The notes below the pieces were generated by a model. The model was not told the DNA's origin. It did no database searches and was given only the letters and a program-made list of their open reading frames with translations. Shown in pieces: positions 28,234 to 55,580 of a stretch of 64,000 bases of DNA. The translations under genes were made by a program, and so were the position numbers. This DNA comes from Clostridia bacterium (GTDB lineage Bacteria; Bacillota; Clostridia; Monoglobales; Monoglobaceae), in the NCBI GenBank assembly GCA_045586925.1, contig JAZNBG010000035.1, positions 6,417 to 70,416 of the forward strand, read 5' to 3'. Each line of letters starts with the position of its first letter. Position 1 is the stretch's first letter.

Positions 28234-28908
28234 ATGACATATGGATATGTTAGAGTGTCCTCAAGTGATCAAAATGTAGACAGACAATTAATTGAAATGG
28301 AAGGATTAACAATCCCCGTACAAAATATTTTTATAGATAAACAATCGGGTAAAGACTTTAAGCGCCCACAATATATTAAATTGCTTGAGGTTCTTAAAAA
28401 AGGTGATTTATTATATGTAAAGTCAATAGACCGTTTGGGGCGAAACTATAAAGAAATACTGGAACAATGGCAAATGCTGACTAAAGAAATGGAAGTTGAT
28501 GTTGTTGTAATAGATATGCCACTTTTAGATACACGAACTGCTAAAGATTTGCTCGGTACATTCATAGCGGACTTGGTTTTACAAGTGCTTTCTTTTGTGG
28601 CTCAAAGCGAGCGTGAAAACATAAAGAAACGCCAAGAAGAAGGCATAAAAGCTGCCAGACTTCGTGGCGTTAAATTTGGACGACCTGTTATTCCCGTGCC
28701 GGATAATTTTGAGTTTCTTGTTGAACAATGGGAACATGGGGAAATATCCGCCGATTATGTGGCTCAGAAAAGCGAAATGAGTGAATCAACCTTTTATAGA
28801 AGATTAAAAGAATTAAGGAAAAACACAAAACAAAAATCACTGTCAAATGGTACACTTTTTGACAGTGATTATTTTTTGTTGATATATACTGTTAAAAACA
28901 GATTTTAA
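28234..28908 (+). CDS. Small serine recombinase (resolvase/invertase family)
   Basis: Catalytic N-terminus YGYVRVSSSDQNVDRQ, SIDRLGRN, and a C-terminal HTH (SESTFYRRLKE). The last ~25 codons read through a terminator hairpin. Confidence 0.85.
   Translation: MTYGYVRVSSSDQNVDRQLIEMEGLTIPVQNIFIDKQSGKDFKRPQYIKLLEVLKKGDLLYVKSIDRLGRNYKEILEQWQMLTKEMEVDVVVIDMPLLDTRTAKDLLGTFIADLVLQVLSFVAQSERENIKKRQEEGIKAARLRGVKFGRPVIPVPDNFEFLVEQWEHGEISADYVAQKSEMSESTFYRRLKELRKNTKQKSLSNGTLFDSDYFLLIYTVKNRF
28835..28878 (+). terminator. Rho-independent terminator overlapping the resolvase 3' end
   Basis: 13-bp perfect stem AATCACTGTCAAA / TTTGACAGTGATT followed by ATTTTTTG. Confidence 0.7.
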
Positions 28909-29051
28909 CACAAAAATTATACTATATTCCCCTTGAAAAGTCAATTAAATGATTTTATTTCTTACCAATCTCCAGTTGAACTGCCTTTGTCAAAAAGTGT
29001 ACTTTTTGGTAAAGCTATCAAGTTATTAGCTAATGGAGGTGTTCGACAAGA

Positions 29052-29552
29052 ATGGAAAACAACAGAGAACAGGAACTGAGGAAGCATAGATGCTGTTTTA
29101 CAGGTCATAGACCTGATAAAATGATACAAGGCGAAAAAGAGATTAAACCGCTACTTGAGGCGGCTATAGATAAGGCAATAGCTGAAGGTTATGTAACTTT
29201 TTTAACGGGCATGGCAATGGGGACAGATATATGGGCTGCTGAAATAATTTTAGATAGAAAGAAAAAGAACAAAAATTTACATCTTATTTGCGCACTGCCG
29301 CATCCTGGCTTCGATAGCAAAAGAAGTGTTGCAGAGAAAATACGGTTTGCAAAAATACTAAAGAAAGCAGATATAGTAAGAGAAATAAGCAATCACTTCT
29401 TCAAGTCATGTTACCAAAAACGAAATGAATGGATGGTTGACAGATCAAATTTGGTTATAGCGGTATTCAACGGAGAACCAAGTGGGACTAAAAATACGGT
29501 CATTTACGCTCAAAGGAAGGGCGTAGAAATCAATAATGTTTTAAAAAACTAA
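29052..29552 (+). CDS. SLOG-fold protein of the DUF1273/YpsA family
   Basis: CCFTGHRP, FLTGMAMGTDIWAAE and the ALPHP pattern resemble B. subtilis YpsA-type SLOG proteins. Confidence 0.6.
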   Translation: MENNREQELRKHRCCFTGHRPDKMIQGEKEIKPLLEAAIDKAIAEGYVTFLTGMAMGTDIWAAEIILDRKKKNKNLHLICALPHPGFDSKRSVAEKIRFAKILKKADIVREISNHFFKSCYQKRNEWMVDRSNLVIAVFNGEPSGTKNTVIYAQRKGVEINNVLKN

Positions 29553-29637
29553 ATATACAAATACAACAAATCATTGACAACTTCATTATATTATTTTAAA
29601 GCAGTGGTAGAATATATACATAAAGGAGTTGTCGAAT

Positions 29638-30477
29638 ATGAAAAGAATTACAAACGAATTAATTAAGAAATTCAGAGAATATCTGTTAAGTGAAGAAAAG
29701 GCAGTAGCAACGATAGAAAAGTATATCCACGATGTTCTTGTGTTTATGACTTGGCTTGCAGGAGCAGAGGTTACCAAAATGGCAGTTCTTGAATATAAAC
29801 AGGAACTAACTGAGAAGTATGCTCCCACAAGTGTTAATGCCGCGCTTTCTTCGTTGAATAGTTTCTTTGTTTTCAATGAATGGTACGATTGTAAAGCGAA
29901 AGCTGTGAAAATTCAAAAGCAGATTTTTGCCAATAAAGAGAAGGAATTATCAAAGGCTGAATACGAAAGACTGCTTTTAGCGGCAAAACAAAAGAAAAAT
30001 CAAAGACTTTACTTTCTTATGCAGACGATATGCAGCACCGGGATACGTGTATCTGAGTTGAGATTTATAACAGTTGAAGCTGTTTTAAGAGGACAGGCAC
30101 ATATTAACTGTAAAGGTAAGATGCGGGTTGTTATTCTCACAAATCAACTCTGTAAAATGCTGAAGAACTATATAAAAGATAATAAAATAATAAGTGGCTC
30201 GGTTTTTGTTACTAAAACAGGTAAGCCACTTGATCGTTCTAATATATGGTCGGATTTGAAAAAACTCTGTGAATGTGCGGGAGTAGATAAAGAAAAAGTT
30301 TTTCCACATAATTTTAGGCATTTGTTTGCGCGCACTTATTATACTTTGCAAAAAGATATAGTTCGTCTTGCTGATATCCTCGGTCATTCCAATGTAAACA
30401 CTACAAGGATTTACACAATGGAAAGCGGAGAGATGCATCGCAAGCAATTGCAAAAACTTGGATTACTGATATGTTAA
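29638..30477 (+). CDS. Tyrosine site-specific recombinase (XerC/D-like)
   Basis: SAM-like N-terminal domain. Catalytic residues are in TGIRVSEL (Arg), HNFRHLFA (His-x-x-Arg) and GHSNVNTTRIYT (His, Tyr). ATG 29638 follows AAGGAG. Confidence 0.85.
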   Translation: MKRITNELIKKFREYLLSEEKAVATIEKYIHDVLVFMTWLAGAEVTKMAVLEYKQELTEKYAPTSVNAALSSLNSFFVFNEWYDCKAKAVKIQKQIFANKEKELSKAEYERLLLAAKQKKNQRLYFLMQTICSTGIRVSELRFITVEAVLRGQAHINCKGKMRVVILTNQLCKMLKNYIKDNKIISGSVFVTKTGKPLDRSNIWSDLKKLCECAGVDKEKVFPHNFRHLFARTYYTLQKDIVRLADILGHSNVNTTRIYTMESGEMHRKQLQKLGLLIC

Positions 30478-30486
30478 ATTAAAAAA

Positions 30487-30508
30487 CCACATAATTTCTC
30501 TTATGTGG
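30487..30508 (+). repeat. Left core-type recombination site (8-6-8)
   Basis: CCACATAA-tttctc-TTATGTGG has perfect inverted half-sites around an asymmetric 6-bp spacer. It lies 10 bp after the recombinase stop codon. Confidence 0.6.
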
Positions 30509-30584
30509 TAAAACTGAATGAAGAGTTCCCCAATTTGTGTGTTATGAAATATGCATAACGGCTATTTTAACCCGAAAAAAGAAC

Positions 30585-30644
30585 GCCAATAAGACCAATG
30601 TATTGTGGTATTTTTGCATTGGTCTTATTGGCATTTATTTTTTT
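30585..30644. terminator. Bidirectional rho-independent terminator inside the invertible segment
   Basis: 16-bp perfect stem GCCAATAAGACCAATG / CATTGGTCTTATTGGC, with GAAAAAAGAAC upstream and ATTTATTTTTTT downstream. Confidence 0.8.
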
Positions 30645-30684
30645 GTAGAGTTTCGATGAAATTTTACAAAATTCTCTCAAATCA

Positions 30685-30713
30685 TTGACATTTCGATAAT
30701 AATATGTTACCAT
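30685..30713 (+). promoter_or_regulatory. Promoter inside the invertible segment, currently facing the TetR/T7SS-like operon
   Basis: TTGACA (30685-30690), 17 nt, extended -10 TGtTACCAT (hexamer 30708-30713). Confidence 0.45.
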
Positions 30714-30749
30714 ATTAAAGTATAATTATGTATAGAGCAGTTGTGCGTA

Positions 30750-30771
30750 CCACATAAGAGAAATTATGTTG
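30750..30771 (-). repeat. Right core-type recombination site (8-6-8, inverted)
   Basis: CCACATAA-gagaaa-TTATGTTG. The spacer is the reverse complement of the left site's spacer, so the two sites are in inverted orientation. Confidence 0.6.
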
Positions 30772-30805
30772 TAAGTGGAGTTTATTTTTTTTGAGTAAAA
30801 TTATG

Positions 30806-30819
30806 ACCGACTGGTCGGT
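30806..30819. promoter_or_regulatory. Palindromic operator candidate upstream of the TetR gene
   Basis: ACCGAC-tg-GTCGGT dyad, 29 nt before the TetR start. Confidence 0.35.
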
Positions 30820-30847
30820 ATAGTGTAAACAAAAAGAGGTGTTACTA

Positions 30848-31417
30848 GTGCTTAGCGATGAACAGAGAGAACAGAAAAAGCAAGAATTGCTGGAAAAATG
30901 CTTTGAACTTTTCGTAAAACAAGGATTAGAGAATACCAGTCTGAACGAGTTGGTGGCATACTGCAATGTTCACAAATCAACTATGTATAGCTACTTGGCG
31001 TCAAAAGATGAGATTGTAATCGAATGTGCAAAAATGCATATGCTTGAACTTGATAAGATGTTCAGCAATGTATTTAAAAATCCACCAAATACACTTAAAG
31101 AAGTATTGCAACATGGTTTTGAAAAGATTGTAGAGGAAAAAAGTAAACTAAGGTTTGTATATCAGGTTATATCAAGTCCATTGTACGGAGAACAGGCACA
31201 AAAAGAGTTATCTTCAATTTATATGAAATATGTAGATTATTCTGAACCTATTGCAAAGATGTATAAGGTTGATGAAGCAGAATTTAGGACATGCTTTGTT
31301 TTATTTTTAAGTACAATGCATGACTATTGTATGTGGGGGAATGAATTCCTTGCTAGAGAAAAGTTGGTATACATATATAACAAGGTAACGGAATTAGACA
31401 AAAATAAAGCAAATTAA
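30848..31417 (+). CDS. TetR/AcrR-family transcriptional regulator
   Basis: N-terminal HTH LFVKQGLENTSLNELVAYCNVHKSTMYSYLASKDEI. GTG 30848 lies 8 nt after AGAGG; the ORF-track start at 30839 overlaps the RBS. Confidence 0.8.
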   Translation: MLSDEQREQKKQELLEKCFELFVKQGLENTSLNELVAYCNVHKSTMYSYLASKDEIVIECAKMHMLELDKMFSNVFKNPPNTLKEVLQHGFEKIVEEKSKLRFVYQVISSPLYGEQAQKELSSIYMKYVDYSEPIAKMYKVDEAEFRTCFVLFLSTMHDYCMWGNEFLAREKLVYIYNKVTELDKNKAN

Positions 31418-31432
31418 GGAGTTGTTTTTAAA

Positions 31433-32569
31433 ATGGCTATAATTGATAGAATAAAATATGATGGTCCACAAGATGCTTCGCCATGGTTGATTCACAAATA
31501 TCCAAGTGAAGAATTTGTTTTAGGTTCGCAGTTGATTGTAAATCAGGGACAAGAGGCTTTGTTCTTCAAAGGTGGAGAAGCACTCGATTTATTTGGTGCG
31601 GGAACTCACACTTTACATACGGGAAATCTACCCTTACTGAAAAAAATAGTTAATTTACCGTTTGGTGGAGAAACACCGTTCTCAGCAGAAATTTATTATA
31701 TTAATAAAACTTCAAAATTAGATATGAATTGGGGTACTGCAAACCCATTTCAGCTTGAAGATCCCAAATATGGTCTTATATTATCTATAAGATCACACGG
31801 CAAGTATGGATTGCGTATTACGGATTCAAGAATGTTTGTTAATGAGCTTGTTGGCGCTATTCCTAATGGTGCAACAGTAAACTATCCGTTTGTTGCAAGT
31901 TATTTTAGTGGTTTGTTAACTACATATGTAAAAACTGTTATTTCTAATTTTATGATAAAACAAAAGATTTCTTTTCTTGAGGTAACGGCGTACTTAAGGG
32001 AATTATCGGAAGAATGCCAAAAAGAGATTTCAAACGAGTTCGATAAATATGGTGTTGAAATACAAAATTTCTTTATTGAAGCTATTTCACCTCCAAAAGA
32101 AGAATTTGAAAAGCTTCGCACATATAAAGAAGAGTTGTCTTTGGGAAATGATTTCTATAAACAACGTCGTTCTTTTGATGTATTAGAAAAATTGGCAGAT
32201 AACCCCAATGCAGGTGGAATGGCTAATGCAGGAATCGGATTGGGTATGGGCTTAGGGGTCGCTCCTAATATGGGAAATATTTTTGGTGGAATTGGTGAAA
32301 ATACCATGAATATCAATGGTCAGACAGGCGCGCAAGGAAAAGTATGCCCTAAATGTTCTGCCCAGGTTGCTGAAGGATTAAAGTTCTGTGGTAATTGTGG
32401 GGAGAGGATTAGCAATTCGTTGATATGTCCATCATGCAATCATGAAAATCCTGAAAATACTAAGTTCTGTGGCAACTGTGGTCAAAAACTTGTAAACAAA
32501 TGCAGCGAATGTGGAACAGAGAACGATTTAGGTCAAAAATTCTGCGGTAATTGTGGAAATAAACTGTAA
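31433..32569 (+). CDS. SPFH/Band-7 domain protein with C-terminal triple zinc ribbon (YdjI-like)
   Basis: The N-terminal ~230 aa resemble B. subtilis YdjI (virion-core-like SPFH). A Gly/Met-rich linker is followed by CPKCSAQV..CGNCG, CPSCNHEN..CGNCG and CSECGTEN..CGNCG. Confidence 0.7.
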   Translation: MAIIDRIKYDGPQDASPWLIHKYPSEEFVLGSQLIVNQGQEALFFKGGEALDLFGAGTHTLHTGNLPLLKKIVNLPFGGETPFSAEIYYINKTSKLDMNWGTANPFQLEDPKYGLILSIRSHGKYGLRITDSRMFVNELVGAIPNGATVNYPFVASYFSGLLTTYVKTVISNFMIKQKISFLEVTAYLRELSEECQKEISNEFDKYGVEIQNFFIEAISPPKEEFEKLRTYKEELSLGNDFYKQRRSFDVLEKLADNPNAGGMANAGIGLGMGLGVAPNMGNIFGGIGENTMNINGQTGAQGKVCPKCSAQVAEGLKFCGNCGERISNSLICPSCNHENPENTKFCGNCGQKLVNKCSECGTENDLGQKFCGNCGNKL

Positions 32570-32589
32570 AAGAGGTGAAAAGACAGAAT

Positions 32590-35500
32590 ATGGGCAAATA
32601 TATAGCATATTTTTACATAGACAATCAATTAATGCAATTTGATCTCGACTTGTTGCTAAATAATTGTGTTGATAATTATTTAGGTGAATCAATTCTTCCG
32701 GTAGGAAGTAAGCAACTATTTCCCATTAAAACAGAGAATAAAAAATATTACCTTTATGGGAATTTTAGCAATTGGAAAATTGTTTGTAACGGAAGTGAAG
32801 TCGGAGAAAAAGTTGAAATATCACATGGAAGTTACATCAATTTTTCATCTAAGAAAAGCTCCTATTCTGTTTTGATATCAGAAACAGCTAACTTTAGTAT
32901 ATATAATAATTGTTTGGAAATTCAAAAAAATCAGAATATCTTTATAGGTAGGGCTCCGGAGAGCAACATTGTAATAGATATTAACGATAGTGTATCAAGA
33001 AAACATGCAGCAATAAGATTAGATGCATCAGGCAATGGCTTTGTTGAGGATTTGTCACGTAAAACAGGTGTTTTCCTAAATGGAAAAAGAATTGTTTCAA
33101 GCGAAATAAAATGTGGGGACATTATTCATATAATGGGTGTGTCTATATGTTTTATGGGGACATTTCTTGTTGTTCCTAAAAATATTGTTACAAACGGGAT
33201 GAAAGAGGTCAAGTCTTTTAATGTTGCGCAGCCAACAGATAAAGAGCTTGAAGATACTTATGCAAGGACACCAAGAATATTAAAGTCATTGGATAGAAAC
33301 AAAATAATTATAGATGCACCTACACAGCCTCAAAAATCCAAACAACAACCTTTTATTCTGGTTGCGGGACCTTCTGCGACAATGGCATTAGGTATGATGG
33401 CTAGTTTTGGAGTAACTTTAGCTAATGCACTGAATGGTGGAAACATATCTTCAACTATTACCGGTGGTGTAATGGTTATAAGTATGTTGTTGGGTTCTTT
33501 AATGTGGCCTTCTTTACTTAGAAATTACACTAAAAGACAAGAAATCGCAAATGAAAAGTATAGAGTAGAGAAATATAAATACTATTTGTCGGAAAAAGAA
33601 GCAGAAATAAGAAAATCCTACGAAAGAAATTGCAGAATATGGAATGAAAATCTTTTGCCAGCACCCGATAAATTGTCTCAAATTGTTTTTGAACGAGGTA
33701 TAAATCTTTGGGAAAGAACATTTACAGATGAGGACTTTCTGCAGGTTAGACTTGGAATAGGTGCCAAATTATTTGAAACAGAAATCCAACATCCAAATAA
33801 AGGCTTTACATTGCATGATGACGCATTGATAGATGAAGCAATAAACTTAGCAAACAAATATAAAATGTTAGAAAATGTTCCAATTAGCGTATCATTAATA
33901 AACCAAAGAACAGTTGGAATAGTTGGAGAAAGTGAAAAAATACATAATACACTTAGATGTATGATTCTAAACACGGTTGCACTTCACTCACCTGAGGATG
34001 TAAAGATTTGTGTTATTTGTAATGAACTTCAAATTGAGCAGGTAGAGTGGATAAAAGATTTGCCTCATTGTTGGGATTCTGCTAAAACAACACGATATTT
34101 TGCAACTAATAATATGGAAGCACAAAGACTGCTCAATGATATGGATGAGAAAATTCAAGAAAGAGAAGAATTGATTGACAAAGATGCAATCAGAACCCCT
34201 CATACCATAGTTGTTGTTTTGGATGAAAAAGTAGTTGAAAATATACCTTTTTATAGATACTTAATTGATTCCAAAAACAATGTAGGCATATCCTCTATTT
34301 TTATTGCAGAACACTTTAATAGAATACCTAAAGAGTGTACTGCAATAATTCAAAACGAAAAAGATATATGCGGAATTTATACAAAGAATGAAAACGATAA
34401 TAGATTTGTTTGTTTCAAATCTGATGAGTTTAAACTGACGGATGCTAAAAAAATCAGTCAGAGTATGTCTGAGATTCCGGTTAAGGTTGAGAAAACAAAA
34501 CTTAGTGTTCCTAACCGTGTATCATTTTTGGATATGTATAAGGTGGGAAATATTGAGAATCTTTCAATTGAACAAAAATGGGCAAATAATATGTCAGACA
34601 AAACGCTTGCTGTTCCTATTGGAATAAAAGCAGGCGGAGAATTGTTCTGTTTGGATATACACGAAAAACACCATGGTTGTCACGGATTAGTTGCCGGAAT
34701 GACAGGCTCGGGTAAAAGTGAATTTTTACAGGCATTTATATTATCAGCATTAATTAATTTTAGTCCTAATGAAATTGCATTTGTACTGGTGGACTTTAAA
34801 GGTGGAGATATGGCTCGACCATTTTTGAAGGTTCCGCATCTTTCTGCAACTATATCAAATCTATCCGAAAATATTTTGTATAGAGCATTGATTTCTTTGG
34901 AGGCAGAAGTAAAATCAAGACAAAAAATATTTAATGAAGCCGCATCATTGTTGGGCATTGATAAAATTGATATTAATTCATACCATAAATATTTTAAGGA
35001 AGGTAGATTAACATTACCATTACCACACTTAGTAATTGTAATAGATGAGTTTGCACAATTGAAATCTCAACAACCTGAATTCATGGCTAAACTTGTTGAA
35101 ATAGCTCAGGTCGGAAGAAGTTTAGGAATTCATCTGATATTAGCAACGCAAAAACCGAGCGGTGTTGTTGATCCGCAAATATGGAGCAACTCAAGATTTA
35201 AAGTATGTTTGAAAGTGTTGGATAAGCAGGATAGTACGGAAATGATAAACAGACCGGATGCTGCTTTAATTAAATCTCCTGGACGTGCTTATGTTCAGGT
35301 CGGCTATGATGAAATTTTCGAACAGTTACAGTCAGGTTATAGCGGTGCTGATTATGTTGAACAAAAAGAGTATACAGATGATGAAGATGTAACAATAAAA
35401 CTTATAGATTCTGCTGCTATGCCAATTAGAAGCGCTCGTAGTATATCAGGAAATCTTAAGAGTGGTAAGACACAGTTAGAAGAAACTATAAATAAGATTG

Positions 35501-37239: not shown

Positions 37240-37255
37240 ATAGGAGGTGTATAAT

Positions 37256-38044: not shown

Positions 38045-38045
38045 A

Positions 38046-38303
38046 ATGACTGAAAAAATTACGTTATCGGTATGTGTACTAGGAATTAATAAAAATTGTG
38101 ATTTTTCTGTTCCGACAAATATGTCAGTTAGAGAAGCAATTAAGTTAATGAAAAAGGTGATAACCGAAGAATATTGGGGTAACTCACCTATGCCAAAGAG
38201 CAGAATGAATTTGATGAAGTTGTCTGATCTTGAGGTATTAAATGATTCATTGAGTTTTGCCCAACTCGGTATTTCAAGTGGAGAAAGATTGATTTTTGTT
38301 TAA
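38046..38303 (+). CDS. YukD/EsaB-like ubiquitin-fold T7SS protein
   Basis: 85 aa. The pattern CDFSVPTNMSVREAIKLM ... LGISSGERLIFV parallels B. subtilis YukD (which ends CGITNGDRLEIL). ATG 38046 follows GGAGG. Confidence 0.65.
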   Translation: MTEKITLSVCVLGINKNCDFSVPTNMSVREAIKLMKKVITEEYWGNSPMPKSRMNLMKLSDLEVLNDSLSFAQLGISSGERLIFV

Positions 38304-38317
38304 GGAGTGTAAAAAAT

Positions 38318-39445: not shown

Positions 39446-39461
39446 TTTGAAGTTTGATAAA

Positions 39462-45585: not shown

Positions 45586-45602
45586 AAAGGAGCGAATAAA
45601 TA

Positions 45603-46196: not shown

Positions 46197-46228
46197 AAAG
46201 TACAATTTAAGAAGGGAGTTGTTTATTT

Positions 46229-47422
46229 TTGATCTGTAAAAAATGTGGAATACGATTAGAAGAAGATGCATTGTTTTGTGGCAATTGCGGAAGCAAAGTA
46301 GAACCTGATTCTGCTAAAACCGCGGTTGAGGATTCAAGTCATGAGTTTGTTTACCCAGAGATACCTATGCCTTCAAAAACAACAACGGTAAAGAGGAAAA
46401 ATAACATGTTGATTCCAATAATATCAATTTCTGTTGTTGCTATTGTTCTAATTGTAGCTTTGATATTATTTTTACTACCAAAATTTTTGAATACTAGTGA
46501 AGATGTGGGCACAGATGTTACAACACAGGATGTTATAACAAAAACAGAAGATTTATCTGATTCCTCTTCAAGTACTGAAAGAACAGAAATAGAAGATAGT
46601 GAAATCAGAAATATTATAAATCAATATTCAAACTACACCGATTTTGGTATATATGTTCATAATTTAAACAATGATTATGAATATGGTTTTAATGATGATT
46701 CTGTGTTTTTAGCTTCTGCTATGTGTCAGGTTGTAATATTAGATACCTTATCAAGAACTGTAGAAGATAACAATATAGATATTAATCAGGAGGAACTATA
46801 TTTTAGCTATATACCTAATGGTAAAGAAGCTCCTACGAGCAAAAATGAATCTGACACATATATAAATTTAAAAAAATGCATAGAAGATGTTGCAGTCTAT
46901 GGAGATAATAACAAATCTAATCATATCGTCGATTATATTGGACAAGTCAATAATGTTAACAATGGATTTGACGTAATAAACAATATGCTTAGACGTAACG
47001 GATATACAGATACACATATTAACAGGAAAACTTTTATTAATCCGGATTATATTGATAATAGCGTACCTGCTAATACGACTACTCCAAGCGAAATAGCAGA
47101 TATATTTGAAAATCTAATCAACAACGGCGGATTTGGAAATAAAAATTATATGATGAACATATTCAAATCTGTTGCACTTGATGGACAACCTATAGGCTTG
47201 AAAAAATGTGTGCCTGCGTATTACGATATTTGCAATGTAAATGCTTTGAACTCGCAATCCACTAACAATGTTGCTATTATTAGCGATGGTAATACGGAAT
47301 TAGCTATTGCAATACTATCAACAACCGATGAATCAAAAACTGATGTAGAAAATAACGAAGATCGTGAAATTGTTATAGCAGAATTAATGAAATACATATT
47401 AGATACACAGTTTGAAAATTAG
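46229..47422 (+). CDS. Zinc-ribbon / TM / degenerate class-A beta-lactamase-like ectodomain protein
   Basis: CKKCGIRL..CGNCG, then TM segment LIPIISISVVAIVLIVALILFLL. The ectodomain is colinear with the next protein, but SxxK is SAMC and no KTG is present. Confidence 0.5.
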   Translation: MICKKCGIRLEEDALFCGNCGSKVEPDSAKTAVEDSSHEFVYPEIPMPSKTTTVKRKNNMLIPIISISVVAIVLIVALILFLLPKFLNTSEDVGTDVTTQDVITKTEDLSDSSSSTERTEIEDSEIRNIINQYSNYTDFGIYVHNLNNDYEYGFNDDSVFLASAMCQVVILDTLSRTVEDNNIDINQEELYFSYIPNGKEAPTSKNESDTYINLKKCIEDVAVYGDNNKSNHIVDYIGQVNNVNNGFDVINNMLRRNGYTDTHINRKTFINPDYIDNSVPANTTTPSEIADIFENLINNGGFGNKNYMMNIFKSVALDGQPIGLKKCVPAYYDICNVNALNSQSTNNVAIISDGNTELAIAILSTTDESKTDVENNEDREIVIAELMKYILDTQFEN

Positions 47423-47431
47423 AGGTGTGGA

Positions 47432-48445
47432 ATGAATAACGAAAGATTAGACCGAAAACAAAGAAAAGTACGAAAAAAGAGATTGTTTATGGTTAAGGTA
47501 ATTGCATTCATTCTTTTTATCGTTATAGTTTTTATTGCAGGATTTTACTTTGGTAAAACATATAGCTCTAAAAGCATTCCAGTAGCAAATTTTGACAATG
47601 AATATTCTGAGGAAAAGAGCAAATTAACTGATAATTCCGATGAATTTGATAAATTAAACATTTTAAAGACGGATTTAGTTAGTATTATGAATAACAAATA
47701 TCCTACTGTAGATTTGTCCTTTGCAATCAAAAATCTTGATACGGGTGCTATGGTAGTACATAATAACAAAAAAATGAATAGTGCAAGCATAATTAAATTA
47801 TTCATTTTAGAAACTGTATATAATGAAATTATTCAAGGTAAGTATGTGCTTTCCGAGGAACGAGAAAAAGAATTGGAAAAAATGATTACGGAAAGTGATA
47901 ATAACGCTGCCAACAACTTTATAGATGACTTTGGTGGACAAAATGAAAAGCGTAAGGTTGATGAAACTAATTTAATTAATAAAACAATAAAAGAAAAAGG
48001 ATATTTGTTTACTGAATTAAATCGAAAAATGCATGATAAAACACCACCAGAAGGTCCGTCGGGATATCAGAATTATACCTGTGTCGAAGATGTATGTAAA
48101 TTCTTAGAAGGAATATACAACAAAACTCTTTTTGAAGAACCATACAATACATATGCTTTAAATTTAATGAAAAATCAAAAAAGAAGAGCCAAAATCCCTG
48201 CTATGATAACAGACGAATATAACGATGTTATAGTTGCAAATAAAACTGGTGAGTTGTCCCAGGTGGAAAATGATGCAGCAATAATAATGAGTGATGATTT
48301 TAACATTATATTTGTGGTATTAACTGATAACATACCATTCAAGGCGGATGGTACAACTGATTATGATTTAAAAGAAGAAGTTCAAAAAACCATTTCTAAA
48401 CTAGGGTTAAAGGTTGTTGAATTTTATAATGCAAATCAGTTTTAA
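47432..48445 (+). CDS. Membrane-anchored serine hydrolase of the class-A beta-lactamase/PBP-like fold
   Basis: N-terminal TM anchor. All three motifs are present: SIIK (SxxK), SDN and KTG. Confidence 0.65.
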   Translation: MNNERLDRKQRKVRKKRLFMVKVIAFILFIVIVFIAGFYFGKTYSSKSIPVANFDNEYSEEKSKLTDNSDEFDKLNILKTDLVSIMNNKYPTVDLSFAIKNLDTGAMVVHNNKKMNSASIIKLFILETVYNEIIQGKYVLSEEREKELEKMITESDNNAANNFIDDFGGQNEKRKVDETNLINKTIKEKGYLFTELNRKMHDKTPPEGPSGYQNYTCVEDVCKFLEGIYNKTLFEEPYNTYALNLMKNQKRRAKIPAMITDEYNDVIVANKTGELSQVENDAAIIMSDDFNIIFVVLTDNIPFKADGTTDYDLKEEVQKTISKLGLKVVEFYNANQF

Positions 48446-48518
48446 GCTTAAAACGCAACTTGACAAAAAATTAGTTCTGACAACAAAACAAAATATATAA
48501 AACAAAGGAGAATAAATT

Positions 48519-49976
48519 ATGCAATGTCCAAAATGTGGAAAAGAGAATGCAGACAAAATGAAATTTTGTAGTCAATGCGGAAGCCCATTGGCTGACAATG
48601 AACAAAGAAAAGATGAAAGTACAGTGGTAGCTGGTGAAACAATATCGTCAAATGCATCATATACAAAACCTAAAAATTCAGTTGATGAAAATGTTAAAAG
48701 ATCAAAAATTTATTCATACTTCTATGGTTCAAACACTGTTTTTCAGCAGTTTATAATCATATTAGGTGTTTTCTGTCTTATGATGATTAATGTTGCTAAT
48801 GTAGCACAATATGCAAAGTACAACTCTATGCAAGAGAAGTATTATGAGTTGCGAGAAGAAGTATCAATGGCTGAAAGCGAGTATGAAGAGCTCTACTATG
48901 AATATAGATATGACTTTGATGTTGACCGATATGAGGCTGTTTCAGTTACAAAAGACGAAAAAGATTATGATGAAAAAGTTGAATATAATAAAGCTTTAGA
49001 AAAATATGAAAAAGCTAATGAAAAATGTGAACAGTATTCAGAAAAAATGAACAATGCACATTCTTCAACACCGTTTATGGAAACTGTTTTCAAATTTCTA
49101 GGATATATAGCAATTTTAGTTGGTGTTATTTGGTTTATTTATAAAAAAATCACTTTTGATAAAAGTGGAGAATATGTATATGATCAAGAATTGAAAGATA
49201 AAATTGAAGAAGCAAAACAAAAAGGAATGGACAAGCTTAACATTATTTCTGAGCAAATTGAGAAGGTAGAACCGGTTGTACTTAACGGTATTGCTCATGT
49301 TGATAATGATTTAGTGTCAGCAATATCCATAGGTAAGCTCGGCGCGTTATTCCAAACTTTGTTCAAGTTTATTTTGTCCTTTGATAAGATAATTATAGGA
49401 TTAATAGGTTCGTCTATTTTAACTACAATAAGTACATTTTTAGTTTCTAAAAATGTGCCGTTTATAATTGTATTTTTGCTGGTATTTGGCGGTATAGGAT
49501 ATTTAGGATGTCTCGTATATAAAAAGTATGAAATTGATTCCTACATAAAGCCTAAAACCATTGAAAGATTAAATAAATTTGCACCGCACTACATTGAAAG
49601 AGTAGGTAGTGATGACAGATTAAGAGTATCCCTTCCTGCTATTACGGTTTATATGTTTGGTGACGACCAGTTGTATATGTACTATCAGTATTTGGATATT
49701 GTAACTGGTAAAATATTCTGCGAAGGTGTTCATGAATACTTCTATGAGGATATCGTGGGTGTTACCTCTGCTCAGGAAACTAAAAAGACATATAAACGCT
49801 ATGGATTTATGAATCTCTTCTTGAGAAGCATTGATTATCTTAAAGAACATATTACAGTGGTTTCAAGCGGATGCATGCATAAGGAATCATATGTTGTTGA
49901 TATCGGACATTCTCTTCTCGACACACAATTTGTTGGTATGAGAAATCTTATTCGTCAGAAGAAAATGGAAAAGTGA
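48519..49976 (+). CDS. Zinc-ribbon multi-pass membrane protein of unknown function
   Basis: CPKCGKEN..CSQCG, an acidic coiled-coil segment and about 4 TM helices. The C-terminal ~130-aa domain is shared with the next protein. Confidence 0.45.
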   Translation: MQCPKCGKENADKMKFCSQCGSPLADNEQRKDESTVVAGETISSNASYTKPKNSVDENVKRSKIYSYFYGSNTVFQQFIIILGVFCLMMINVANVAQYAKYNSMQEKYYELREEVSMAESEYEELYYEYRYDFDVDRYEAVSVTKDEKDYDEKVEYNKALEKYEKANEKCEQYSEKMNNAHSSTPFMETVFKFLGYIAILVGVIWFIYKKITFDKSGEYVYDQELKDKIEEAKQKGMDKLNIISEQIEKVEPVVLNGIAHVDNDLVSAISIGKLGALFQTLFKFILSFDKIIIGLIGSSILTTISTFLVSKNVPFIIVFLLVFGGIGYLGCLVYKKYEIDSYIKPKTIERLNKFAPHYIERVGSDDRLRVSLPAITVYMFGDDQLYMYYQYLDIVTGKIFCEGVHEYFYEDIVGVTSAQETKKTYKRYGFMNLFLRSIDYLKEHITVVSSGCMHKESYVVDIGHSLLDTQFVGMRNLIRQKKMEK

Positions 49977-50060
49977 TAAAGAATTATTTTAATGTTAACT
50001 ACTGTGTAATGCCACTACATAGATGTTATATACAAACAACACAAAAGGAGATGTTTAAAC

Positions 50061-50720
50061 ATGGGACTTATTGATGGCGCAGCAGCTGCAGCTGAATTCG
50101 CACAATGGCAAGCACAAAGAAAGAACCTGATGAAAGCGGCTAATCCCACTCAGAAAAAGGCAATTAAATACTTTATTCCTGAACCAGGATGCAAAGGTCT
50201 TTTTGACAAAGTATCAGACGAAGAATATGATGAAATCGTAAAGGGTATGGTTAAGTCAAGCAATTCTTATCAGAGAGCTCTTGACAAAATCGGTCTTGAT
50301 GAAAGCGAACTTAAAGAGATTCCTCCGGTTACATTATACGGATACGAAGAAGGCAAGAATAGCTTTTCAAAAACAAATATAGATGGAACATACAGAACTA
50401 ACCTTTACTCCATCACACACTTGTTCTTCTCTGCTACACAGGTTTATATGTATCAGCTCGTTTTAAATACAATGAAGAATGACCGCAAGGAAAGAACTGA
50501 AGAATATTTCTATAAGGATATTACAAACTTCTCAACTCTTTCCGATACTGTTGAGTCTATTACTTTCAAGGGCTGTCAGAATACAGTGCAGAAAGTATCT
50601 GTTGAAGTACAGAAATTCTCTCTTATCGTACCTGGCGACAAATTCACTTGTGCTACATACGGTGATATCGATCAGCAGGTAAGAGCAATGAAAAATAAGC
50701 TTAGAGAAAAGAAACAATAA
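50061..50720 (+). CDS. Hypothetical soluble protein sharing a C-terminal domain with the 48519-49976 product
   Basis: QVYMYQL..EEYFYKDI..VRAMKNKLREKK parallels QLYMYYQ..HEYFYEDI..FVGMRNLIRQKK. Strong AAGGAG RBS. Confidence 0.45.
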   Translation: MGLIDGAAAAAEFAQWQAQRKNLMKAANPTQKKAIKYFIPEPGCKGLFDKVSDEEYDEIVKGMVKSSNSYQRALDKIGLDESELKEIPPVTLYGYEEGKNSFSKTNIDGTYRTNLYSITHLFFSATQVYMYQLVLNTMKNDRKERTEEYFYKDITNFSTLSDTVESITFKGCQNTVQKVSVEVQKFSLIVPGDKFTCATYGDIDQQVRAMKNKLREKKQ

Positions 50721-50752
50721 TTAGTTATAGCGTGCACGCTAAAGGTAATTAT

Positions 50753-50786
50753 AGGTGATATAGGTGGCATCTGTATCACCTTTTTT
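50753..50786 (+). terminator. Rho-independent terminator closing the long T7SS-like operon
   Basis: AGGTGATA / TATCACCT stem with a 13-nt loop, followed by T6. It is preceded by the palindrome AGCGTGCACGCT (50729-50740). Confidence 0.6.
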
Positions 50787-50802
50787 CTTAAAGGATGGTC
50801 AC

Positions 50803-51294
50803 ATGTTTAGAAAGAAAAAAGAATTTGTTGAGTATCACAAATATAAAGTTGTGAAAGAAAAAAAGATAGTAAGAAAAGAAGAAATATATCCTGAAACACA
50901 TCAAAAATTGGTAAGACCTAAAATAAACTACCTTAGTGTCTGTTTGAAAATAGCATTTAGTCTAGTTGTAAATCTTTTAATAATGATGTTGATTTTTGAT
51001 TTGATTACAAGGAAAGCGTCAATAACACACGAATGGATTTGGCGTGTTTTGACTTTTGTTTTTCTACAGGTGATAACAATTATAATTAGCTTAAAAAGAA
51101 TTGTGATTTTTATAATTAGATTGTATCAAAGGTATGCTCCGTATGAGGTAAGATCAACTTGTTTGTTTGTACCTAATTGTTCGGAATATATGGTTTTGGC
51201 AATTGAAAAATATGGTTTAATTAAAGGAATTAAAATGGGGCTAGCACGATTTAATCGATGTAAACCTCCATATGGCGGAGTAGATTATCCATAA
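50803..51294 (+). CDS. YidD-like membrane protein insertion efficiency factor domain with an N-terminal two-TM extension
   Basis: The C-terminus YAPYEVRSTCLFVPNCSEYMVLAIEKYGLIKGIKMGLARFNRCKP matches the YidD (haemolytic domain) signature. ATG 50803 was chosen because the ORF-track start lies inside the terminator. Confidence 0.6.
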   Translation: MFRKKKEFVEYHKYKVVKEKKIVRKEEIYPETHQKLVRPKINYLSVCLKIAFSLVVNLLIMMLIFDLITRKASITHEWIWRVLTFVFLQVITIIISLKRIVIFIIRLYQRYAPYEVRSTCLFVPNCSEYMVLAIEKYGLIKGIKMGLARFNRCKPPYGGVDYP

Positions 51295-51556: not shown

Positions 51557-51662
51557 AGGTTTTTTATACATAAGAACAATAAAAGAATATTATTTTAAAA
51601 AATTAATAAAAAAAACAACTCCACCTATTGTAAAGATAAAAATGATGTGTTAAAATATGCTT

Positions 51663-51850
51663 GTAAAAACTCATGATGAGTTTCAGGTAAGAAGATTACA
51701 CAGGTAAGAAGTTAAGCAGGTTTAAGATGTTACTCAAAGGGACAAGTCTGCCCTTTTGCAGAAAACGCACCTGTGATTGTCATAAGTGGAAACAAAAAGA
51801 AAGCAAACGCAAGTAATGAACCTACGGGGGATTTCGGTGTTTGCTTTTAT
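51663..51850 (+). ncRNA. Candidate small RNA unit 1 (own promoter and terminator)
   Basis: Promoter TTGTAA (51628-51633), 17 nt, TGtTAAAAT (hexamer 51651-51656). The body has GGTAAGAAG twice plus TTAAGCAGGT, then the GGGACAAGTCTGCCC motif with a T-run (51739-51757). The second hairpin is AAGCAAAC/GTTTGCTT with a T-run ending at ~51850. Confidence 0.3.
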
Positions 51851-51972
51851 TTTATCAAGTAGTAGAAAATAAAAATGCTTCGAGTATAGAAAAAACATTG
51901 AAAAAGTGAAACGATATGTTTATTTTCCCTCCAGGTATTGTAAATCAGGAAATAATAATGTAAAATGTACTT

Positions 51973-52056
51973 GTAAAAATGGTAAGCAGTTACACGGGTA
52001 AGCAGTTAAGCAGGTTAGCATAAAAATTGTTGGCGGGATAAGTCTGTCCGTTTTTA
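51973..52056 (+). ncRNA. Candidate small RNA unit 2 (paralogue of unit 1)
   Basis: Promoter TTGTAA (51938-51943), 17 nt, TAAAAT (51961-51966). The body has GGTAAGCAG twice plus TTAAGCAGGT, then GGGATAAGTCTGTCC followed by T5. Confidence 0.3.
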
Positions 52057-52674
52057 GCTATCTGCTTTAATGGAAAGTGTGAAAAGCATTATCCAATTTT
52101 ACGGAGATTAAAATTATATAGGCGGTAACAAAGAATGTAGAAACTATCCTATGGGATAAGACTGCATTCTTTTTGTTTTTAGAAGATAGATTTATCGGTT
52201 AGGAATAAAAGTTTTTATGAAGTCCTATACGGCACTTTTTACACTGTCTTGTAAAAGGATGTACGGACACAAAGATGTTTTGGTTGGAGAAACAAAAATG
52301 CAGAGTTTGCCATCGGATTTGTACGCATAGACTTTAAAAAATCCGTAGAGGTTGGACAGAACCTTGACATAGTAGCGGCTGTGAAAATATTAAATTACAT
52401 ATGTCACCGCTATGACATATTTCAGCATCGGCATAAATATATGCACCTGAGTTTAGCAGGGATGCTACCGCAGGAGAGTTTCTCCAACTACCTTTTGCGG
52501 GAATATTACTAACCGAGCAATATGCTTTAGATAAAATGGAGACAGGAACAAAGAAAACGTCTCAAAATACTGCAAATACTGGGTTTCTCACACAGTCATA
52601 CCGGGAAACACAGAGGTAACGAGGTGAAATTCCAACGGGATAGGTATGCCCTATGCTGAGGAAAGGACATTACA

Positions 52675-53535
52675 ATGTGTAAAAACATATACAAGAACTT
52701 GGAAATACAGTACAAGAAATTATTCCGCCATTTAAAGGTCGGAAGTTTCAAAACAAGAGAACGTTACGGAAAGGCGTTTAAGCGATTCATGGTATTTTTG
52801 GCAAGAGAATATCATTTGCAAAAGTTGGCAAACATTTCAGAAAAGCATATATACGCTTATGTAAGCTATATGCAAAATAAAGGTTTGTCTGCCTCAACAA
52901 TAAAGACCGAGCTTGCGGCAATACGATTTTTCCACGACAGTATGCCGTACACAAGAAGCACCTTGCCGACAAATGATGAACTCGAACTTGAAAAACGTAA
53001 TTTCGGCGGAGTTGACAGAACTTGGTCCGAAATAGAGTTTGCAAAAATGCTTGCAGCATCAGTGATGGGAGAATATCCGGAGTATTCGGGAATGCTTTAC
53101 CTTGGAAGATATGCCGGACTTCGTTTGGAAGAATGTTTCCGCATTGACACCAACGATGCTAAAAATGCTCTTGAAACGGGACAGCTACTGGTTAAAGGCA
53201 AAGGTGGACTCACAAGGTATGTACCGATTTGCTATCAACTTGAGATTGTATTTCGTGATATGTTAAAGATTACACCTATCGGACAAAAGCTATTTGTAAG
53301 ACCGTATGACAAGACACATCTTGCAATGAAGCGTTTGCAAAATTTTATTGCATACCACAGAAAAGAGTTTACTGAAAACAGAATTACCTTTCATGGACTT
53401 CGACATACATATGCTCACGAACAGTATGAGAAGTTCATAAAAGAAGGTTGTTCGGAATTTGATGCCCGAAAAAAGGTATCGGAGCTGCTCGGTCATCATC
53501 GTGATGATGTAACGAGAATATATTTAGCCGAATAA
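52675..53535 (+). CDS. Tyrosine recombinase/integrase
   Basis: SAM-like N-terminal domain (HIYAYVSYMQNKGLSASTIKTELAAIRFF). GLRLEE (Arg), HGLRHTYA (His-x-x-Arg) and LGHHRDDVTRIYL (His, Tyr). Confidence 0.8.
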   Translation: MCKNIYKNLEIQYKKLFRHLKVGSFKTRERYGKAFKRFMVFLAREYHLQKLANISEKHIYAYVSYMQNKGLSASTIKTELAAIRFFHDSMPYTRSTLPTNDELELEKRNFGGVDRTWSEIEFAKMLAASVMGEYPEYSGMLYLGRYAGLRLEECFRIDTNDAKNALETGQLLVKGKGGLTRYVPICYQLEIVFRDMLKITPIGQKLFVRPYDKTHLAMKRLQNFIAYHRKEFTENRITFHGLRHTYAHEQYEKFIKEGCSEFDARKKVSELLGHHRDDVTRIYLAE

Positions 53536-53582
53536 AAATTTGAATATTTGGAAATTATTAGATATAGCGAAAGGAGCTTTGT

Positions 53583-53789
53583 ATGATAAGTACTTCTGAT
53601 ATCGATAATTTCGTAGATTTGAAAAATTTGGCTATTGATAAAACAAAACCAATTGAGGAGCGGCTAAAGCAATTTATCACGGATGTAAAAAATCCGTATA
53701 TGGTAAGAGTTGGCGATACACTGGTACGAATAGAATTTACCGGTGGAAGAAACTTTTCAGATGCTTTAACTGCAGCTTTCGGTGCATAA
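53583..53789 (+). CDS. 68-aa protein of unknown function immediately upstream of the large serine recombinase (possible directionality or accessory factor)
   Basis: AAAGGAG RBS. The suggested role rests on position only. Confidence 0.3.
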   Translation: MISTSDIDNFVDLKNLAIDKTKPIEERLKQFITDVKNPYMVRVGDTLVRIEFTGGRNFSDALTAAFGA

Positions 53790-53813
53790 GTGGAAATTTC
53801 ATAATATTTCCTC

Positions 53814-53842
53814 TTGAAGTTTAGGCGGCGGTATGATATAAT
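53814..53842 (+). promoter_or_regulatory. Sigma-A-like promoter of the large serine recombinase gene
   Basis: TTGAAG (53814-53819), 17 nt, TGaTATAAT (hexamer 53837-53842). Confidence 0.45.
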
Positions 53843-53897
53843 TTTTAATGTAGAGATTAGCATATCGCCGTCAAAATAAAAGACGGAGGTACGCGAT

Positions 53898-55580
53898 ATG
53901 ACAAATACAAAATATGCGATGTACTTAGAGCAGCCTCCAGTATTTAAAATACAGTGGAGAGCTGCTCTTTATATAAGACTTTCAAAAGAAGATGGCGACA
54001 AAGGAGAAAGTAACTCTGTAACATCGCAGAGAGAAATATTAAAAGAATTCTTAAAGCTTCGCCCTGACATTGAACTCTATGACATTTATGTAGATGATGG
54101 TTGGTCGGGTACAAACTTTGACAGACCTGATTTTACACGAATGATGGAAGATATTTATTCCGGCAATGTAAATTGTGTTATAGTAAAGGATTTATCGAGA
54201 TTCGGAAGAAACTATACTGATAGCGGAAATTATCTTGACAATGTGTTTGTGAGGCTCAGAGTTCGTTTTATTGCACTTAATAACGGTGTTGATACCGCAT
54301 CAAACAATATGAACGCTGCAACACAGTGTATTTCTGTAGGTGTTACTAATGTTATCAACGAAAGTGTTGCCGCAACAACTTCGGTGAATGTTCGCGGAAC
54401 ACTGAATGTAAACCGTGCTCAAGGTAAATTTATAGGTTCTTTTCCAACATACGGATATTTAAAAGATCCTAATGACCATCATAAACTTATTGTTGATGAA
54501 GAAGTTGCGCCTGTTATTCGGTCAATATTTGAACGATTTGTTGCAGGTAAAAGTATAATCGGCATTGCAAAGGAACTAAACGAAGAAGGTATTCCTAATC
54601 CTTCAATGTATAAGAAACTTAAAGGTTTTAATTATAGACATCCCGTAGGAAAAAGCAATGACGGATTATGGCCGGACAGTTCTGTGCGAAGAATACTGCG
54701 AAATGAAATGTATATCGGCAATATGGTGCAAGGTAAAAATACAACAATAAGTTATAAGATTAAGCAATGCAGGCCAATTCCTAAAGAGGATTGGATTATT
54801 GTTGAAAACACTCACGAGGCTATTGTAAGTAAAGAGATATTTGAAAAAGCACAGTCTCTTTTCAACAAAAACATACGAGTCGCACCACAGAAAAAAGAAG
54901 TAGATTTATTTTCTGGTTTTGTTCGCTGTGCTGATTGTCATAGAACTATGAATAAGAAAACCAATGTCCATTCTTATGCAACATATCATTATTATCGTTG
55001 TTCTACTGCAAGAAAGATGAAAAAAAGTGCTTGTGGTAATCATACGATAAGAATTGATAAGCTGGAAGAAGCGGTATTAGTTGTTATTCAGAACATGGTT
55101 GATGTGGCAATTGAAATGGATGATATTCTAAAGAGAATCAATTCCAATGGTGAAAGAAAAAAAGAATCCAAACATCTTAAAAAGGCAATCGAAACACAAA
55201 CTGCTGAAAGGGATAAATGCAAACGAATGATGGTTGATTTGTATCCTGACTGGAAGAATGGCATTATTACTCAAGAGGAATATTTAATGTTAAAGCAGGG
55301 TATTTCAGAAAAAATAGAAACTCTTGATAAAATGATAGAAAATCTCACCGAAACAGCAAGAAGTTACGAGGAAGGAGTAAATGATGAAAATGAATTTATA
55401 GCCCATTTCAAGGCTCATGGCAAAATAAAAGCTTTAACCCGAAATCTTCTGCTTGAGTTGGTTGACGAGATTTTAGTTCACGAGGGCGGAGATATTACCG
55501 TGAAATTCAAGTTTAACGATGCCTATAAAGAAGTTATGGAATATATTGAAATGAATAAGGATGTTATTAAGACTGCTTAA
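53898..55580 (+). CDS. Large serine recombinase (SpoIVCA/SprA/phage-integrase type)
   Basis: 560 aa. Resolvase catalytic domain (AALYIRLSKEDGDKGESNSVTSQ, VKDLSRFGRN), a recombinase domain, a zinc-ribbon (CADCHRTM...YYRCST..ACGNH) and a coiled-coil tail. It lies 130 bp from the right junction. Confidence 0.9.
   Translation: MTNTKYAMYLEQPPVFKIQWRAALYIRLSKEDGDKGESNSVTSQREILKEFLKLRPDIELYDIYVDDGWSGTNFDRPDFTRMMEDIYSGNVNCVIVKDLSRFGRNYTDSGNYLDNVFVRLRVRFIALNNGVDTASNNMNAATQCISVGVTNVINESVAATTSVNVRGTLNVNRAQGKFIGSFPTYGYLKDPNDHHKLIVDEEVAPVIRSIFERFVAGKSIIGIAKELNEEGIPNPSMYKKLKGFNYRHPVGKSNDGLWPDSSVRRILRNEMYIGNMVQGKNTTISYKIKQCRPIPKEDWIIVENTHEAIVSKEIFEKAQSLFNKNIRVAPQKKEVDLFSGFVRCADCHRTMNKKTNVHSYATYHYYRCSTARKMKKSACGNHTIRIDKLEEAVLVVIQNMVDVAIEMDDILKRINSNGERKKESKHLKKAIETQTAERDKCKRMMVDLYPDWKNGIITQEEYLMLKQGISEKIETLDKMIENLTETARSYEEGVNDENEFIAHFKAHGKIKALTRNLLLELVDEILVHEGGDITVKFKFNDAYKEVMEYIEMNKDVIKTA

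Follow-up and report, generated by a model that had tools for sequence, protein, structure and literature searches.

A genomic island in spoVAD of a Clostridia bacterium, integrated by a large serine recombinase and bearing a probable tyrosine-invertase promoter switch

The DNA considered here is a stretch of 64,000 nucleotides from a Clostridia bacterium of the Monoglobaceae (assembly GCA_045586925.1, contig JAZNBG010000035.1, positions 6,417 to 70,416), which we call the window and number from its first letter. Inserted in its sporulation gene spoVAD is a genomic island that was integrated by a large serine recombinase (LSR), descends from a conjugative-element lineage and bears a promoter switch served by a tyrosine invertase. 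The four site-specific recombinases listed by the initial annotation are all confirmed at the following positions; each open reading frame (ORF) is intact and full length, with Pfam matches and all of its catalytic residues kept.

28234-28908, plus strand: small serine recombinase, 224 amino acids, Sin/Bin3-like (Pfam Resolvase, E 6e-28; R7, S9, D66, R67, R70)
29638-30477, plus strand: tyrosine recombinase 1, 279 amino acids, proposed invertase (Phage_integrase, E 5e-28; R137, K161, H224, R227, H250, Y259)
52675-53535, plus strand: tyrosine recombinase 2, 286 amino acids (Phage_integrase, E 1.5e-10, and SAM-like N-domains; R150, K176, H240, R243, H274, Y283)
53898-55580, plus strand: LSR, 560 amino acids, TnpX/TndX type, island integrase (Pfam Resolvase, Recombinase, Zn_ribbon_recom and DUF4368; S29 present)

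We consider it likely that the region is a single LSR-integrated island in which these recombinases have different jobs, and that its mosaic make-up came from exchange of blocks and not from the nesting of one element within another. The extent of the island is seen in composition and in the target gene alike. GC content is ~0.30-0.37 across ~19-56 kb of the window, against ~0.42 in both flanks. The SpoVAD profile of Pfam is divided over two ORFs, the upstream one matching positions 1-207 and the downstream one 201-328, and the island therefore interrupts spoVAD, in a host operon of the order spoVAC-spoVAD-spoVAE. When junctions are compared with those of related elements (loci numbered with L below), the crossover falls on a CC dinucleotide, present at 19140-19141 and at 55709-55710, which sets the island limits at 19142-55710. 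Joining 18519-19141 to 55711-56104 in silico gives an unbroken SpoVAD of 338 amino acids, ...NNMGAAMAP/AAADT... (slash at the join). The features concerned, including the two attachment (att) sites, are as follows.

19142-55710, no strand: integrative island, 36,569 bp, low GC (GC profile and att junctions)
18519-19141, plus strand: 5' fragment of host spoVAD (Pfam SpoVAD 1-207, E 1e-88), the ORF running on to an island stop at 19166
55711-56104, plus strand: 3' fragment of host spoVAD (Pfam SpoVAD 201-328, E 1e-52), rejoining in frame
19140-19168, plus strand: attL, core CC (19140-19141) with island-side arm TGTAAGTGTTAAACTAACACCATAAGG (junction alignment with L017 and L054; arm single-copy in the window)
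55684-55710, plus strand: attR, island-side arm TTATGGTGTACCCTTGACATTTTCCCC ending in core CC (55709-55710), single-copy in the window

The initial annotation had placed the LSR at the spoVAD junction, and this is upheld: its gene lies beside the C-terminal fragment of spoVAD, and comparison of att sites and targets identifies the enzyme as the integrase of the island. Its nearest solved structure is the TnpX catalytic domain (E 2e-26), and annotated TndX is ~35% identical to it. The reconstructed attP contains the 9-bp inverted motifs TTATGGTGT and ACACCATAA; both island-side arms are conserved among the related loci, the attR arm being kept in L001, L003, L017 and L050 and having a variant form in L004-L011. 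Relatives of the LSR at 72-93% identity number in the thousands, one identical LSR-family protein being indexed in 1265 blocks of the sequence collection; an exact-sequence look-up with the window LSR matched no contig. The target could be counted in 13 independent loci with enough flanking DNA, and in 12 of them the insertion is at the same spoVAD motif, so that the target specificity of the LSR is the Pro codon of MAP/AA in spoVAD. Hosts differ among these 12 loci (spoVAD fragments 48-58% identical, other neighbouring genes), and the cargo is wholly different from one LSR locus to another (conjugation apparatus, Fic proteins, transporters, peptidases). At the sole off-target locus of the 13, L009, a conjugative-element form of the LSR is inserted in an ABC permease gene.

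The junction at that locus, at 11831-11880, reads ...TTCTTCCCC up to the join and GGCTACTTTGG after it. Two further loci depart from the simple arrangement. L054 has lost its right junction together with spoVAD-C and spoVAE. In L017 (GCA_045660065.1) the stretch between spoVAC and spoVAD is occupied (410-8676) by four Peptidase_M73 genes and a relative of tyrosine recombinase 1 that has an inverted-repeat switch of its own; a separate 9-kb LSR element inside spoVAD adjoins that switch unit, so the spoVA operon has been struck twice there.

Directly upstream of the LSR gene is a small gene that may assist it.

53583-53789, plus strand: DUF6870 small protein, 68 amino acids, candidate directionality factor, adjoining the LSR gene upstream

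This gene stands immediately 5' of the LSR in all the LSR loci fetched, and because the same slot is taken by an Xis-like gene of the HTH_17 type in relatives with a tyrosine integrase (L047-L049), we consider DUF6870, from its position, a candidate recombination directionality factor. A 101-residue ORF on the minus strand between tyrosine recombinase 2 and the LSR was discarded as not a real gene, the real one being the DUF6870 ORF. In the mechanism we favor, the LSR, probably aided by DUF6870, would have integrated the island at the CC in the Pro codon of the spoVAD MAP/AA motif, and precise excision by the same enzyme would rebuild spoVAD.

The second role that comparison assigns is that of tyrosine recombinase 1. 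The initial annotation had noticed an inverted-repeat switch beside this enzyme, and the switch is real: its left (IRL) and right (IRR) inverted repeats are arms of 25 nt that are 96% complementary, and they enclose a promoter.

30486-30772, no strand: invertible element, IRL 30486-30510 and IRR 30748-30772
30685-30713, plus strand: promoter in the invertible segment, TTGACA-17-TACCAT with upstream TG (consensus scan), facing tetR and the type VII secretion system (T7SS)-like operon, the ON state
30806-30819, no strand: palindrome ACCGACTGGTCGGT, likely TetR operator, between IRR and tetR, kept in L012 and L045
30839-31417, plus strand: TetR-family regulator, first gene after the switch

The mechanical ORF of tyrosine recombinase 1 starts at a TTG at 29629; the 279 amino acids given above are the length of its relatives. 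An annotated tyrosine-type DNA invertase, PsrA, is 34% identical to it. The first switch site lies 12 bases past its stop codon and reads ACCACATAA-TTTCTC-TTATGTGGT; the second is found 237 bp further on in inverted orientation, with the spacer GAGAAA for TTTCTC. Each site thus consists of two 9-bp inverted arms about an asymmetric spacer, and the motif occurs at these two places only in the window, against 0.05 expected by chance. The 237-bp segment between the arms (30511-30747) also holds a hairpin (30575-30642), preceded by an A-run and followed by a T-run, that may act as an insulator.

For a family view, 25 metagenome loci with relatives 27-69% identical to the enzyme were fetched and loci gathered earlier were added. 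An exact inverted-repeat pair of 16-29 nt is present in 23 of the 25 assessable loci, beginning, in all but one, 5-49 nt past the stop codon of the recombinase, and with 220-350 nt between its arms. Each subfamily has its own repeat sequence, and repeats that are always present and yet co-vary with the subfamily argue for function. Inversion itself is seen in a sister clade, where a 340-nt segment stands in opposite orientations in L023, L027 and L030 on one side and L025 and L028 on the other, at 98.5-99% identity; the flanks are collinear at 99%. Further states are seen in L029 and L026. In the subfamily 95% identical to the window enzyme, two contigs of different samples, L014 and L015, stop exactly at the last base common to the ON and the predicted flipped form, the assembly break expected of a population of mixed orientation. 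The genes behind the switches of the family vary (a beta-helix surface protein, a hybrid kinase, a type III restriction system, M73 peptidases).

The closest comparison for the switch together with its operon is L045, a Clostridia genome from Hadza gut found by a scan with the EssC-like protein. It has the same operon, tetR-SPFH-EssC-...-TPR, at 86% DNA identity starting exactly at IRR, and also has an inverted-repeat pair by its recombinase, which is 68% identical to tyrosine recombinase 1. By consensus scans the switch promoter lies on the plus strand in the window and L012 and on the minus strand in L045, where a perfect match (12/12) points the opposite way, the OFF state. From these sequence comparisons we conclude with good confidence that tyrosine recombinase 1 is dedicated to inversion, not to mobility. 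It would invert the 237-bp segment and so make the promoter face either toward tetR and the T7SS-like, kinase-rich operon behind it or away from them, presumably in the strain of the window as well, and the palindrome before tetR, if it is the TetR operator as seems likely, would give the operon a second layer of control.

The other two recombinases find their place through the blocks in which they recur. The first block, 28222-31418, comprises the resolvase, YpsA, invertase, switch and TetR genes, ends with tetR, and includes one gene still to be listed.

29052-29552, plus strand: YpsA/SLOG (DprA-like) protein, member of the conserved 3.2-kb block

All of this matches L012 and L014 as one block at 78% DNA identity, the protein identities being 71-74% for the resolvase, 60% for YpsA, 95% for the invertase and 86-87% for TetR. 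In L012 the block is preceded by conjugation and replication genes (TraG-like, coupling protein, RepA_N) and followed by other cargo, namely a 1688-residue protein, an SLH protein and Tad pilus genes; distant relatives of tyrosine recombinase 1 occur without the resolvase and YpsA. Because the window and L012 have this one block in common, we regard the resolvase as backbone inherited from a conjugative element. Nearest to it among solved structures is the Sin/Bin3 resolvase (E 2e-31, residues 1-158). Its C-terminal tail is 26 residues longer than that of the L012 protein because the ORF reads through a terminator hairpin, and upstream of its gene there are only a promoter-overlapping palindrome and a 345-nt repeat. 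As to function, its most likely one, tentatively proposed, would be to resolve multimers of the circular form of the element. A second switch considered at 28828-29008 was rejected: the inverted repeats there are a terminator hairpin and a short conserved motif, in the same orientation in L012.

A second trace of the conjugative lineage lies near the left end.

20693-20859, plus strand: conjugative-element intergenic remnant, 167 nt, 76% identical to L012/L014 2187-2353

The counterpart in L012 and L014 sits between conjugation genes. The island ORFs include no conjugation genes by Pfam, and tblastn with the L012 conjugation proteins gave 0 matches in the window; no hidden conjugation pseudogenes were found. 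The set that marks an integrative and conjugative element, its own VirB4/TraG-like ATPase, coupling protein and relaxase, is absent from the island.

The second block forms the right end of the island and joins a non-coding region to tyrosine recombinase 2, DUF6870 and the LSR.

51596-52674, plus strand: conserved non-coding region 5' of tyrosine recombinase 2, with two units of promoter and GGTAAG(A/C)AGTTA tandem motif

Relatives of tyrosine recombinase 2 (65-96% identical) are always directly 5' of a small gene and an integrase at the end of an element, and the integrase is of changing type. In L050-L053 the relative is followed by DUF6870 and the spoVAD LSR, and window 51901-55619 is collinear with L050 at 81%, the LSR being 92% identical; in L018 it is followed by a 51-residue gene and an unrelated LSR, in L047-L049 by the Xis-like gene and a tyrosine integrase, and in L019 it adjoins a split tyrosine integrase. 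The match to L018 covers 51596-53523 at 89.6% identity and ends 4-5 codons short of the end of the gene (53523-53529), where the DUF6870-LSR block starts. On this alignment we read 53523-53529 as a mosaic junction, at which tyrosine recombinase 2 was apparently shortened slightly past its catalytic tyrosine and had its last 4-5 codons replaced. Tyrosine recombinase 2 and the array upstream of it would then make up a backbone module of the integration end, whatever the type of integrase, and our best guess, a tentative one, is that this module might serve resolution or regulation of the excised circle.

The tandem units number two or three and are found in the window (51619-52060), L018 (~1020-1450), L019 (3760-4450), L050 (8950-9360) and also L051; each has a promoter-like sequence, GGTAAG(A/C)AGTTA twice and a small hairpin with a T-run. 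As an array they might offer binding sites to a protein, or they might be genes for small RNAs. When the units at 51.6-52.1 kb were examined as small-RNA genes, an alignment of nine sequences gave no consensus structure, and what is conserved is a tandem DNA motif. No convincing inverted-repeat pair was found around the tyrosine recombinase 2 gene, and a switch of its own was discarded. Scans of viral contigs with tyrosine recombinase 2 and with EssC gave no matches.

The account that competes best with a single island, itself unlikely in our judgement, is that of nesting or accretion: the defence block, the switch with T7SS and the right end would each have been inserted by a recombinase of its own, which could still move it. 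The initial annotation leaned this way: it saw the recombinases as marking the boundaries of functional blocks, and proposed assembly by successive insertions and sub-modules that may still be mobile or rearrangeable. The boundaries did not survive comparison, which finds instead the two conserved blocks, 28222-31418 and ~51600-55620, with the recombinases paired, two in the one and two in the other. Genomes with subsets of the blocks, which the initial annotation had named as a check, were found (L012, L018, L019, L045, L046, L047). The block from the small serine recombinase through YpsA, tyrosine recombinase 1 and switch to TetR is part of a conjugative element with other cargo in L012; tyrosine recombinase, switch, TetR and T7SS occur in a non-island context without the resolvase in L045; the T7SS block follows a phage-type integrase, with neither switch nor TetR, in L046; and the non-coding region with tyrosine recombinase 2 lies beside other integrases in L018, L019 and L047. 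The island is a mosaic on this account, since its blocks occur separately in other genomes, and to that extent assembly from several sources stands.

What speaks for insertion of one element into another, beyond these separated blocks, is that L003, L017 and L050 hold extra genes between LSR and attR, compatible with accretion at spoVAD, and that the defence cassette, next to the resolvase gene, is bracketed by direct repeats.

21242-27585, plus strand: defence cassette of DUF234 ATPase, N6-methyltransferase, specificity subunit, KwaA and KwaB (Pfam, NCBIfam)
20797-21140, plus strand: direct repeat copy 1, ~345 nt, ending in a hairpin and T-run, 74% identical to copy 2
27815-28163, plus strand: direct repeat copy 2, ending ~70 nt before the resolvase gene

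These repeats are just 74% identical, however, with a longest exact run of 26 nt, and no variant lacking the defence cassette only was found among the relatives compared. There are no internal LSR att sites: the window has exactly one attL arm and one attR arm, and tblastn with the rejoined SpoVAD finds no piece of spoVAD other than the fragments on either side of the island. The uniqueness of each att arm also led us to reject a tandem accretion of LSR elements, two in number, and no att-like or terminal repeats bounding sub-blocks were found in the island. The sites of tyrosine recombinase 1 span only 237 bp, and its relatives show inversion, not integration; the junction between tyrosine recombinase 2 and the LSR trims the end of an ORF and looks like an illegitimate fusion, not a site-specific join. 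Of the mobility proposed for sub-modules, then, inversion of the switch is what homologous loci display, and there is no sign of sub-modules moving alone. We therefore prefer a mosaic that would have arisen by block exchange between related elements, not by insertion recombinase by recombinase.

Some observations weigh against this preference and should be kept in view. The homology with L045 begins exactly at IRR and stops exactly at IRL, the very repeats of the switch, and because of these breakpoints the invertase sites may also be exchange points, which comes nearer to the view of the initial annotation. The 345-nt direct repeats could be a substrate of the resolvase. The roles we propose for the small serine recombinase and tyrosine recombinase 2 are tentative ones drawn from family resemblance and gene position alone, and no res or target site was recognised for either enzyme.

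Let us consider, as an alternative that starts from the target gene, a developmental element of the skin type, excised during sporulation to rebuild spoVAD as skin is from sigK and SPbeta from spsM. The island does interrupt a sporulation gene, the LSR gene adjoins the C-terminal fragment, excision gives an intact ORF, and both spoVAD fragments, spoVAC, spoVAE and spoIIP are intact in the window, among host flank genes that are otherwise ordinary. The spoVA operon is, however, transcribed in the forespore under sigma-G (B. subtilis, C. difficile), and excision there would cost the germ line its island, whereas the known elements act in the mother cell. Read by eye, the region upstream of the LSR has a vegetative-type promoter as its sole match (TTGAAG-17-TATAAT with upstream TG); the identical LSR is found on conjugative elements in many different hosts, the ordinary behaviour of an integrase; and one lineage has the right junction and spoVAD-C deleted. 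Because the target is forespore-expressed and the LSR serves conjugative elements moving between hosts, we do not file the island as a developmental intervening element, and we think it very improbable that it is one. We give equally little credence to a decaying, immobile remnant with inactive recombinase relics, a view suggested by the lack of conjugation or mobilisation genes, the lost native C-terminal tail of tyrosine recombinase 2 and a conjugative backbone reduced to the fragment at 20693-20859, and opposed by four full-length recombinase ORFs with every catalytic residue, intact att arms and switch sites in both pairs, and spoVAD halves that still rejoin in frame.

The remaining features of the island, which in the single-island reading are cargo, comprise the genes at its left end and the long operon behind the switch.

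19266-20671, plus strand: left-end cargo, Gp49/HigB-like toxin and transglutaminase-like protein (Pfam)
31433-51294, plus strand: T7SS-like, kinase-rich cargo operon (Pfam; collinear in L045 at 86% DNA identity, present in L046)
within 31433-51294, plus strand: SPFH, EssC-like FtsK ATPase with FHA domain, YukD, three WXG100 proteins, DUF4176 (Pfam)
within 31433-51294, plus strand: PP2C, two Ser/Thr kinases, TPR, two beta-lactamase-fold proteins, YidD-like protein (Pfam)

The two Ser/Thr kinases are neighbouring paralogues at 41863-45585, with ~79% DNA identity and a spacing of 1818 nt, and L045 has one gene there. Both direct repeats around the defence cassette have a terminator-like hairpin at the end, and they share a hairpin whose loop, CUAGUAGGGAGGGU, is conserved and whose stem shows compensatory changes; the L012 conjugative element also has the left part of the repeat, between two of its genes. 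From these sequence features the repeats could be a structured RNA, a leader or a region resembling an origin of transfer (oriT). Rfam gave no match in the window or the island, at the gathering threshold or at E <= 1.

Irrespective of the details, a few implications deserve attention. An island with several recombinases is not necessarily a nested one; those found here come down to an integrase, an invertase and two accessories of the backbone, and it is the first two of the four whose roles the comparative data assign. spoVAD emerges as an insertion hot spot of an LSR family that is very common in gut metagenomes. Such a hot spot is not described in the searchable literature, where spoVAD combined with recombinase, intervening or conjugative element gave nothing relevant, and spoVA goes unmentioned in a survey of Faecalibacterium mobile elements. 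It bears on the loss of sporulation and on annotation, in which spoVA genes can be mistaken for cargo of mobile elements: SpoVAC/AD/AEb are listed as such cargo in a published survey (PMC6907783), and some of these entries may be the split flanks of spoVAD insertions. The cassette of recombinase, switch and TetR before interchangeable cargo suggests that mobile elements can bring along their own bet-hedging control of costly surface or secretion systems. A portable ON/OFF cassette of this kind before a T7SS-like operon is likewise not described in the searchable literature, which gave nothing linking an invertible promoter with type VII secretion.

At its most speculative, the reading would be that LSR elements targeting spoVAD may switch spore maturation off and on again in gut Clostridia: while inserted they would keep spores from taking up dipicolinic acid, an excision regulated to occur ahead of sporulation or in its course would lift the block, and the element would persist as a free circle or by integrating again. 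We hold this idea to be quite doubtful. Were it true, carriage of a very common element family would decide whether a lineage makes resistant spores, and the copy in the window would, in addition, subject a T7SS-like weapon to ON/OFF control by a promoter cassette that is portable.

Lastly, the parts of the island may be set beside systems already known. The small serine recombinase resembles the Sin, Bin3 and beta resolvases of Firmicutes plasmids and transposons in structure (the match at E 2e-31) and in having the catalytic residues; it differs in lying in the backbone block of a conjugative element, in its tail, longer than that of L012 by 26 residues, and in that no res site was recognised for it. 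With Tn5397 and Tn4451, whose recombinases are TndX and TnpX, the island shares an LSR of the same domain architecture (Resolvase, Recombinase, zinc ribbon, DUF4368), the position of its gene at the element end and site-specific integration at a short core. It differs in that the LSR is only ~35% identical to TndX, the target is a specific codon of spoVAD, and the window copy has no conjugation or mobilisation genes, though sister elements of the LSR family have them.

With skin (SpoIVCA, sigK) and SPbeta (SprA, spsM) it has in common an LSR-bearing element in a sporulation gene, the recombinase beside the C-terminal fragment and an ORF that precise excision restores. In contrast to their targets, which are expressed in the mother cell, spoVAD is expressed in the forespore, no sign that sporulation controls the island was found, and the spoVAD LSR family includes conjugative elements that spread between hosts. 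The members of skin carry unrelated cargo (bioRxiv 10.1101/2022.02.25.481979), as do the spoVAD LSR elements among themselves.

Closest to the switch are the invertons (C. difficile RecV, E. coli fimS with FimB/FimE, Bacteroides, streptococcal PsrA), which likewise place a tyrosine recombinase by inverted repeats flanking a promoter segment of a few hundred bp; among relatives of the window's switch, the sister clade shows both orientations. Unlike them, the recombinase of the window serves one switch, with only two sites in the window; units of its type ride mobile elements before interchangeable cargo; and here the switch drives a T7SS-like operon in which the TetR gene comes first.

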